Of a stretch of DNA of 43,597 nt, positions 16,382 through 16,579 are shown in pieces. Both the position numbers and the translations under genes were made by a program. Every line of letters starts with the position of its first letter. The first letter of the stretch is position 1. Source of the stretch: a virus (lineage: Duplodnaviria; Heunggongvirae; Uroviricota; Caudoviricetes); the IMG/VR virus record IMGVR_UViG_2778261529_000002, positions 1 through 43,597 of that record; one strand, given 5' to 3'. The notes beneath the pieces are model-generated. The model made no database searches. It was not told the DNA's origin and saw only the letters and a program-made list of their open reading frames with translations.

Positions 16382-16420
16382 CCGTTAGTGACTCTTAAGT
16401 TGCAACGGTGGCTTTTTTTA
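16382..16420 (+). terminator. Late-operon terminator (tR-prime-like) downstream of Q
   Basis: Imperfect hairpin followed by TTTTTTTTA; -35-like TTGACA at 16338. Confidence 0.5.
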
Positions 16421-16423
16421 TTT

Positions 16424-16498
16424 GGGTCAGTCGTATAAAGGTCATTACGGAAGGCAGTTAACCTTCTTATCGTGGTTCGAGTCCACGCTGTCCCGCCA
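16424..16498 (+). tRNA. tRNA-Asn-like (anticodon GUU) with an unusual A at position 33
   Basis: Hand-folded cloverleaf: acceptor stem 6 of 7 pairs, T-loop TTCGAGT, anticodon stem GAAGG/CCTTC, loop CAGTTAA, encoded CCA. Confidence 0.55.
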
Positions 16499-16503
16499 AA
16501 TAT

Positions 16504-16579
16504 ACTGGTTTAGCTCCAATGGTAGAGCAGTCGCCTTGTAAGCGAATGGGTAGCGGTTCAAGTCCGTTAACCAGCACCA
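16504..16579 (+). tRNA. tRNA-Thr (anticodon UGU)
   Basis: Hand-folded cloverleaf; D-arm AGCTCCAATGGTAGAGC and anticodon arm resemble E. coli tRNA-Thr; encoded CCA; A1-C72 mismatch. Confidence 0.65.

Follow-up and report, generated by a model that had tools for sequence, protein, structure and literature searches.

Organization of the locus

The window, i.e. the whole stretch of 43,597 nucleotides that was analysed, is an integrated E. coli prophage and begins inside a host cscB-like transporter gene. Its closest relative among complete genomes is found in E. coli AST215 (92% coverage, 98.7% identity), and in the late genes it shares about 94.5% identity with phage vB_EcoM-606R2. The late ORFs of the prophage constitute a continuous set of long ORFs, which argues against general decay. 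The region of interest contains, in this order, NinG, the late antiterminator gene Q, a terminator, two tRNA genes, a leader, the genes for holin, endolysin and Rz, and the terminase genes (Table 1).

Table 1. Features surrounding the two tRNA genes, with their positions in the window
Feature	Position	Strand	Evidence or remark
NinG	15189-15800		
Q-family late antiterminator	15787-16332	+	PHROG 943, E = 9e-89; PF06530 Phage_antitermQ, E = 1e-24
Putative late promoter PR' and start of qut site	16339-16374	+	Placed by position only
Late-leader intrinsic terminator tR'	16376-16423	+	17-pair hairpin, then UUUUUUUAUUU
tRNA-Asn(GUU) gene, CCA encoded	16424-16498	+	ARAGORN; Rfam RF00005, 46.6 bits
Spacer AAUAU (5 nt) between the tRNAs	16499-16503	+	T at 16501 is a common polymorphism
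tRNA-Thr(UGU) gene, CCA encoded	16504-16579	+	ARAGORN; Rfam RF00005, 55.3 bits
Non-coding late leader, tRNA-Thr to holin start (~245 nt)	16580-16823	+	
Class II holin, opening the lysis cassette	16824-17027	+	PF16080; PHROG 20
Endolysin	16999-17502		PF00959; PHROG 7
Rz	17487-17939		PHROG 13

The hexamer TTGACA can be read from the sequence at 16339-16344, and in the alignment with the phage Sf6 record it corresponds to two annotated features, the promoter PR', which the record calls "nearly identical to phage 21 late promoter", and the qut site. A consensus promoter scan of positions 16200-16900 found neither a late promoter nor a promoter owned by the tRNAs. Since the tRNA-Asn gene starts directly after the U-run of the terminator, there is no room for a separate tRNA promoter. 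The terminator itself, which is annotated as tR' in Sf6, has a predicted fold of -20.2 kcal/mol (z = -4.69), and none of 200 shuffled sequences was equally stable. It also accounts for about 40 bases at the beginning of the interval 16382-16579, to which the initial annotation had attributed the pair of tRNAs: from 16424 onwards this interval does correspond to tRNA, but positions 16382-16423 are terminator hairpin and U-run and hold none. In the leader that separates tRNA-Thr from the holin gene, the only ORF (50 amino acids) has no Pfam match, and the leader has no Rfam match.

Two full-length tRNA genes

Within the 43.6-kb window, ARAGORN predicts two tRNA genes and no more, Asn(GTT) and Thr(TGT), both on the + strand. 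Each of them matches the Rfam model RF00005 over its full length (model positions 1-71 of 71; E = 6e-07 for tRNA-Asn and 2.4e-09 for tRNA-Thr), and the covariance-model check proposed in the initial annotation thus accepts both, with scores well in excess of the gathering score of 29 (Table 1). No other family was matched when the whole window was compared with Rfam, and a permissive Rfam scan of positions 16250-16900 did not reveal a third tRNA or any other RNA element. The presence of two phage tRNAs between the late terminator and the holin gene, as originally proposed, is therefore confirmed by ARAGORN, by Rfam and by the annotation of the neighbouring genes. The cloverleaves then drawn by hand also hold: a tRNA-Asn with anticodon GUU, A33, the T-loop TTCGAGT and an acceptor mismatch, and a tRNA-Thr with anticodon UGU and A1 opposite C72.

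The anticodon loop of tRNA-Asn reads CAGUUAA, which puts an A at position 33 (position 16456 of the window), where tRNA-Thr keeps the usual U33. Neither gene can form all seven acceptor pairs. In tRNA-Thr, A1 (window position 16504) faces C72 instead of forming the consensus G1-C72 pair, and in tRNA-Asn there is a U4.U69 mismatch. The latter is common to the whole family of related genes, as is the U13.U22 mismatch of tRNA-Asn; G27.A43 and C14 are the corresponding family-wide quirks of tRNA-Thr. Otherwise, according to the ARAGORN structures and the Rfam alignment, G18-G19, a T-loop of the TTCRA type (TTCGAGT and TTCAAGT, respectively), a purine at position 37 and an anticodon loop of 7 nt are present. 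The identity elements are kept as well, namely G34-U35-U36 and G73 in tRNA-Asn, and G35-U36 and C2-G71 in tRNA-Thr. The polymorphic position of the spacer, 16501, is T in 73 loci and C in 77 loci.

A cassette already known from Sf6, phage 21 and P22-like phages

Judged by sequence comparison, the pair is the already known tRNA-Asn/Thr cassette found in the late leader of Sf6-, phage 21- and P22-like phages. The Sf6 record (AF547987, from 2004) annotates PR', qut, tR', tRNA-Asn and tRNA-Thr in the same order, and labels each of the two tRNAs 'similar to phage 21'. Over 527 nt, Sf6 is 92.3% identical to the window, and the two share the complete arrangement of Q, PR'/qut, tR', Asn(GUU), 5-nt spacer, Thr(UGU), leader and holin. 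Phages SPN9CC and BTP1 and E. coli prophages are closer still, with 97-98% identity to the window over the module, and the pair is likewise annotated in vB_SosS_Oslo. More generally, phages of Salmonella and E. coli share 97-98% identity over the module extending from the terminator to the holin, whereas the adjoining Q gene varies. The Sf6-type cassettes show the same quirks as the window, i.e. U4.U69 in tRNA-Asn, and G27.A43 and C14 in tRNA-Thr. What distinguishes the window from them is that A33 replaces U33 in tRNA-Asn, that A1 replaces G1 in tRNA-Thr, and that the Q and holin alleles on either side show mosaicism. The initial annotation had missed that the pair is a long-annotated feature of these phages.

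The cassette is also frequent. The 551-nt junction from Q to the holin matches 175 phage records and 1361 of the 5426 complete E. coli genomes searched; the 221-nt tRNA core alone matches 814 of these 5426 genomes, in many of which it is identical at 219 of 221 positions. Carriage among complete E. coli genomes is thus about 15-25%, depending on the query used. Of the matches listed, many of the phage records and every E. coli genome carry an annotation of both tRNAs. The literature searched contained neither a paper relevant to the function of the cassette nor data on its expression.

Stx-converting lambdoid phages have a set of tRNA genes, ileZ-argN-argO, downstream of Q in the corresponding slot, i.e. 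after Q/tR' and ahead of the first late genes. This set is usually explained as a supply of decoders for minor codons. A related cassette of four tRNAs, Thr(UGU) among them, is present in locus L088. The tRNA species are different, however, and the Asn(GUU) tRNA of the window reads no minor codon.

Frequency and origin of A33 and A1

The initial annotation had drawn attention to the non-canonical anticodon loop of this tRNA-Asn. Such a loop is not characteristic of the family, whose consensus is canonical (U33 in tRNA-Asn, G1-C72 in tRNA-Thr). Relatives were retrieved from IMG/VR with patterns that leave the odd positions free, i.e. the 3' half of tRNA-Thr and the anticodon arm of tRNA-Asn with N33. 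All but one of the 138 tRNA-Asn genes obtained in this way have T33 and the remaining one has C33, so that A33 is found in none; likewise, none of about 128 tRNA-Thr genes has A1, all of them being G1. A scan of a genome collection, again with position 33 left free, gave five matches, all with T33, and G1 in all four that have a Thr gene. The match from E. albertii carries a Gly(UCC) gene in place of the Thr gene.

With a pattern specific for A33, a single match was obtained among viral contigs (L146). It derives from the same phage as the window, from which it differs by 2 mismatches in 4691 nt, at positions 13767 and 15540. Megablast searches specific for A33, in which the queries were 49 nt long and every 28-nt seed spanned the variant base, found the allele in none of 5426 E. 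coli genomes and in none of 50,697 phage records. Four exact matches to the A33 pattern found in metagenomes were discarded as chance matches, none of them being a tRNA-Asn. The A1 allele is less restricted: it is present in three viral contigs (L146, L147 and L148) and in 6 of 5426 E. coli genomes, and in none of the phage records. Its carriers have mosaic backgrounds with different Q and holin genes.

Alignment of related loci leads to the same picture. At window position 16456, 147 of 149 loci have T, one has C and one has A; at position 16504, G is found in 143 of 148 loci and A in five. When about 150 loci are compared position by position, these two are the only sites inside the tRNA genes where the window has the minority allele. 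The genes of the window do, therefore, show one of the marks expected of a pseudogene, i.e. rare lineage substitutions at positions invariant among relatives. Between positions 16418 and 16806, the A1 carrier AST215 differs from the window at 16456 only, and A33 would thus result from one recent T-to-A change on an A1 haplotype. Judging from these comparisons, A33 is confined to this prophage lineage, and A1 is an older allele of low frequency. The pair is not a new kind of tRNA, and the bases that catch the eye are private or rare point mutations. The lesson is a simple one: a 'non-canonical' base in a single sequence should be checked against its relatives before being interpreted.

Selection on the family and probable cost of the variants

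Nucleotide diversity was computed per position on 102 loci. Among 89 haplotypes, it amounts to 0.008 for tRNA-Asn and 0.012 for tRNA-Thr; the adjacent leader is 4-5 times more diverse (0.046 for positions 16580-16700). It reaches 0.16-0.22 in the Q/promoter segment, the putative promoter being highly variable (0.22); the terminator is highly conserved (0.007). Variants in the stems of tRNA-Thr keep pairing more often than they break it (14:4), and among them are two double changes in which the second base compensates for the first: G5-C68 has become U-A in 5 loci, and A49-U65 has become G-C. The frequent variants of tRNA-Asn are found in its loops. Apart from A1.C72, no allele that breaks a stem occurred more than once. 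The low diversity, together with stem changes that mostly preserve pairing, indicates that the family is a functional tRNA pair under purifying selection; there is no sign of the relaxed constraint that pseudogenes would display.

Since A33 and A1 affect otherwise near-invariant positions in a family under purifying selection, they are likely to weaken function. In terms of Rfam score, the change from the U33 consensus to A33 lowers tRNA-Asn from 55.3 to 46.6 bits (-8.7), and the change from the G1 consensus to A1 lowers tRNA-Thr from 61.5 to 55.3 bits (-6.2). However, both variant genes exceed the tRNA threshold by a wide margin, neither of them contains an indel, and the prophage keeps its continuous set of long late ORFs. 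The genes of the window are not pseudogenes by score or structure. The initial annotation had listed a decaying pseudo-tRNA among its explanations; as far as the odd bases are concerned this is the closest of the readings it offered, but it does not apply to the genes as judged by score and structure.

As to the possible consequences of A33, U33 enforces the U-turn that is required for ribosome binding, and the bacterial enzyme responsible for t6A does not read this base (PMC13276492). The bacterial TGT recognises a U-G-U motif in the loop (PMC1950534), and A33 may therefore also block queuosine formation at G34. Among the annotated tRNAs used as controls, 36 of 36 have U33. The only A33 call in the control set concerns a tRNA-like element within T5 rnaX.

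For tRNA-Thr, the G1-C72 pair contributes to recognition by ThrRS. On the other hand, positions 1 and 72 are likewise unpaired in the tRNA-Gln(UUG) of T5, which is annotated as an effective suppressor, and the persistence of A1 across different mosaic backgrounds argues that it is not strongly harmful. From its distribution, A1 is probably only mildly harmful. Taken together, A33 and A1 are most likely neutral to mildly deleterious. RefSeq annotates the tRNA-Thr in G1 carriers and lacks it in the three A1 carriers inspected; ARAGORN and Rfam do call the gene where RefSeq omits the A1 form.

We therefore favour, with a probability of roughly three in four, the view that the window contains a genuine, co-transcribed copy of the Asn/Thr cassette, in which A33 and A1 are weakening or tolerated mutations rather than adaptations. 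The prophage would simply carry its own copy of a cassette present in Sf6, in phage 21-type, P22-like and many other lambdoid phages. If lambda, 21 and 82 are taken as a guide, the tRNAs would be made mainly once Q lets RNA polymerase pass tR', so that they would appear alongside the lysis and virion mRNAs. Host tRNA-processing enzymes would then excise both of them, and AsnRS and ThrRS of the host are expected to charge them given that the identity bases are kept. In the late phase of infection, the charged tRNAs would enlarge the pool available for AAC/AAU and ACA codons. With A33, the U-turn would be disturbed and the U-G-U motif of the queuosine-inserting enzyme lost, and A1 would break the first acceptor pair; the two changes would weaken the tRNAs, or else be tolerated if the cassette is dispensable. 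The family as a whole may be maintained because it supplies a scarce decoder (for ACA) or because it replaces host tRNAs destroyed by nucleases such as AriB of the PARIS system. We rate these two possibilities as about equal, neither of them reaching even odds, and they are not mutually exclusive.

Codon supply as a possible reason for maintenance

The first possibility is that the cassette boosts late decoding of codons favoured by the phage, chiefly ACA, which in the host is read by a single-copy, minor tRNA-Thr(UGU). In the codon comparison suggested in the initial annotation, ACA accounts for 13.6 codons per 1000 in the window, with an ACA/Thr ratio of 0.23. Pooling 101 carrier loci gives a value of 12.7, compared to 5.5 per 1000 (ACA/Thr, 0.10) in a 50-kb sample of K-12. 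The enrichment in Asn is slight (4.4% versus 3.7% in the K-12 sample). Minor codons ending in A are also served by other cassettes placed in the same slot, through Arg(UCU) and Gly(UCC); in locus L088 these two stand together with Thr(UGU) and with a fourth tRNA gene, whose CAT anticodon would read AUA if it is of the Ile2 type. Furthermore, placement in the late leader couples tRNA supply to the demand of the late genes.

However, P22, which is close to many of the carriers, has no tRNAs and yet shows equal ACA usage (12.5 per 1000) and a higher usage of Asn (55.6 per 1000). Codon demand is thus not decisive as a discriminator of carriers, and does not explain who carries the cassette. In the late genes of lambda, ACA is at 7.8 per 1000. 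The Asn tRNA is a further difficulty: the enrichment is small, and host tRNA-Asn is, as is generally known, abundant. It is multi-copy and non-limiting in E. coli, so that codon supply explains the Asn gene poorly. Finally, the phage tRNAs are far removed in sequence from the host genes and are not recent copies of them, and supply alone needs no divergence. All in all, codon supply is a tentative candidate.

Possible replacement of host tRNAs destroyed by nucleases

The second possibility, to which we give the same tentative standing, is that the Asn(GUU)/Thr(UGU) cassette replaces host tRNAs destroyed by abortive-infection nucleases, chiefly the PARIS effector AriB, and that the phage copies escape AriB because they lack the bases it reads. 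The targets of AriB are tRNA-Lys(UUU) as the main one, Thr(UGU) as a prime one and Asn(GUU) as a secondary one (PMC12409363). The nuclease reads U36-A-A-U39-C40|A41 plus U16: cleavage is abolished by changing U39 to A, reduced by changing A41 to C and impaired by changing U16 to C (PMC12409363). Variants of tRNA-Lys, tRNA-Thr and tRNA-Asn encoded by T5 neutralise PARIS, rescuing both growth and infection (PMC12409363).

The cassette has the same anticodons as the two host tRNAs cut by AriB besides tRNA-Lys, and the determinants are changed in both of its tRNAs. Positions 36-41 read UAACCU in the cassette tRNA-Asn, compared to UAAUCC in E. coli asnT and UAAGUU in the T5 tRNA-Asn; for tRNA-Thr, the corresponding sequences are UAAGCG in the cassette, UAAUCA in E. 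coli thrU and UAAGCA in T5. Position 16 is A in both cassette tRNAs and U in both host tRNAs. Hence tRNA-Asn has C39, U41 and A16 and tRNA-Thr has G39, G41 and A16, where the host tRNAs have U39, C or A at position 41, and U16. In other words, the family carries exactly the two non-lysine target tRNAs of AriB, with the mapped recognition bases changed. Other observations go in the same direction. Lambda, though it lacks tRNAs, is restricted by PARIS too (PMC9122126). HepS, a nuclease of the Salmonella prophage Gifsy-1, likewise cleaves tRNA-Thr(UGU), and does so late in infection on sensing tail-tip protein (PMC13043305). The failure of codon demand to separate carriers from non-carriers also counts in favour of this possibility.

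Several facts, however, stand against it. A tRNA-Lys(UUU) was found neither in the window nor in any of about 150 related loci, and the tRNA-Lys of T5 was needed for rescue in every reported case (PMC12409363). The changes at positions 39, 41 and 16 are weak evidence, since they are expected in any diverged tRNA, and the agreement in anticodons was spotted after the fact, with several sets of nuclease targets to choose from. One relative (L142) has a tRNA-Thr with what appears to be the anticodon arm of host thrU, including U39-C40-A41. In other phages, the same slot is occupied by a glyT-like tRNA-Gly(UCC), which is no target of AriB. Lastly, the literature searched yielded no paper tying the cassette to defence.

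Two of the three T5 rescuers share the anticodons of the cassette. The T5 and cassette tRNAs are alike in lacking U39 of the UAAU motif, and those of the cassette also differ from the host tRNAs at positions 41 and 16. The anticodon arms of the two tRNA-Thr are similar (GUCGC-CUUGUAA-GCGAA in the window, GUUGC-CUUGUAA-GCAUC in T5). In contrast to T5, the cassette has no tRNA-Lys partner, and its resistance to AriB is a candidate property read from the bases just mentioned. It belongs to a temperate lambdoid phage and its late expression would depend on Q, by analogy, whereas T5 is virulent and has a large tRNA cluster.

The suggestion made in the initial annotation that the tRNAs could be a target or decoy of nucleases is thus, as far as can be told from sequence, a reasonable lead for the whole family; the relevant features would be the differences in the anticodon stem and D-loop and not A33. 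If it were true, the evasion of nucleases by means of tRNAs, so far shown for the large virulent phage T5, would also be a property of common prophages, and the cassette would gain a function after twenty years without one. The natural A33 and A1 alleles would then provide ready-made hypomorph controls. A more elaborate version, in which the cassette would be a Q-timed module of nuclease-resistant tRNAs directed against AriB and possibly HepS, with A33 as a potential escape step against colicin E5, seems doubtful to us.

Other explanations for the odd bases

Our preferred reading, in which A33 and A1 are weakening or tolerated changes, has to be weighed against an adaptive role of A33 itself: a purine at position 33 could shield tRNA-Asn from a nuclease that reads the loop, e.g. 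colicin E5, which requires Y33-G34-U35. Colicin E5 cleaves tRNA-Asn among four tRNAs, the YGU sequence being absolutely required, and minihelices are hardly cleaved any more once the U corresponding to position 33 is changed to A (PMC1635277). A33 is accordingly predicted to block colicin E5, which would count against calling it non-adaptive. We nevertheless consider such a role very unlikely. A33 is confined to one lineage and has not recurred, on a background otherwise identical to that of AST215 (16418-16806), and the loss of the U-turn nucleotide probably has a decoding cost. Moreover, E5 kills through the Tyr, His, Asn and Asp tRNAs, so that one E5-resistant tRNA-Asn would not rescue the cell.

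The least probable explanation, which we regard as close to negligible, is that the odd bases are sequencing or assembly errors, which single-base changes at otherwise invariant positions do resemble, or that the tRNA decodes differently, in frame or codon. Altered decoding, which had been proposed in the initial annotation, was dropped for want of support, as neither the anticodon GUU nor the loop length of 7 nt nor A37 has changed. As for errors, A33 is unlikely to be one since it is present in two non-identical records: both A33 and A1 recur in the second viral record of this phage, L146, and A1 is in addition found in 6 finished E. coli genomes.

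Variants of the cassette and its RefSeq annotation

[quoted passage not shown] A pair composed of tRNA-Asn and tRNA-Gly(TCC) replaces the Asn-Thr pair in eight of the compared loci (L120, L123, L132, L133, L135, L138, L143 and L157), E. albertii being represented among them, and a four-tRNA set is found in L088 (see the table). No tRNA-Lys was found among about 150 related loci, alternative cassettes included.

Coordinates of the features discussed in this part.
Feature	Locus	Position	Strand	Description
Four-tRNA set	L088	1134-1445		CAT (Met or Ile2-type), Arg(TCT), Gly(TCC), Thr(TGT); at the cassette slot
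tRNA-Thr, A1.C72	L163 (E. coli A3)	1525-1600
tRNA-Thr, A1.C72	L164 (E. coli TL20)	1525-1600
tRNA-Thr, A1.C72	L168 (E. coli AST215)
tRNA with anticodon GAT	L011	13532-13606
Chimeric tRNA-Thr region	L142	1359-1512
Short GC hairpin, CCCCTTCATTGAGGGG	window	16802-16817		directly upstream of the holin start codon
180-aa ORF	window	18550-19092	-	PHROG 5663, E=1e-48
tRNA-like 'Ser(ACT)'	L151 (phage T5)	21432-21505		within stable RNA rnaX

In all three inspected carriers of the rare A1.C72 allele, RefSeq lists the tRNA-Asn and leaves out the tRNA-Thr, which is still called by ARAGORN and Rfam (55.3 bits); in G1 carriers, both genes are present in the RefSeq annotation.

Two relatives carry further variants. 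The L011 gene has the body of the cassette tRNA-Asn, with the Ile anticodon GAT instead of GTT and two further changes; it is an anticodon switch that arose naturally inside the cassette. In L142, the tRNA-Thr joins a phage-type 5′ half to a 3′ half which, by eye, matches that of E. coli thrU, host U39-C40-A41 included, and the next gene is a glyT-like tRNA-Gly(UCC); this arrangement suggests that the phage cassette recombined with the host thrU-tyrU-glyT-thrT operon.

The cassette, which is of enterobacterial phage type, was also seen at 96-99% identity on two contigs from MAGs that serve as GTDB species representatives and are assigned to gut anaerobes: 'Segatella copri' (L155) and 'Collinsella sp.' (L158). 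Both contigs are almost certainly mis-binned.

Position 14 of tRNA-Thr

A14 is near-universal in tRNAs. Throughout the family, position 14 of tRNA-Thr (16517 in the window) is a pyrimidine, either C or, in eight loci, T; phage T5 likewise lacks A14, its tRNA-Thr and tRNA-Asn both having T14. [quoted passage not shown] Separately, ARAGORN called a tRNA-like element with A33 in T5 rnaX; its anticodon stem is weak, and it carries no tRNA annotation.

Neighbouring features

The hairpin preceding the holin gene was scored as terminator-like on the minus strand in a scan and, compared with the majority sequence, carries a 2-nt insertion and two substitutions in the window and 20 relatives. Further downstream, an opposite-strand ORF separates the lysis cassette from the small terminase gene. 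The PHROG it matches is categorized as of unknown function, the DUF2441 match is weak and the AST215 homologue is annotated 'hypothetical protein'; the ORF looks like a moron, possibly a defence or anti-defence gene.
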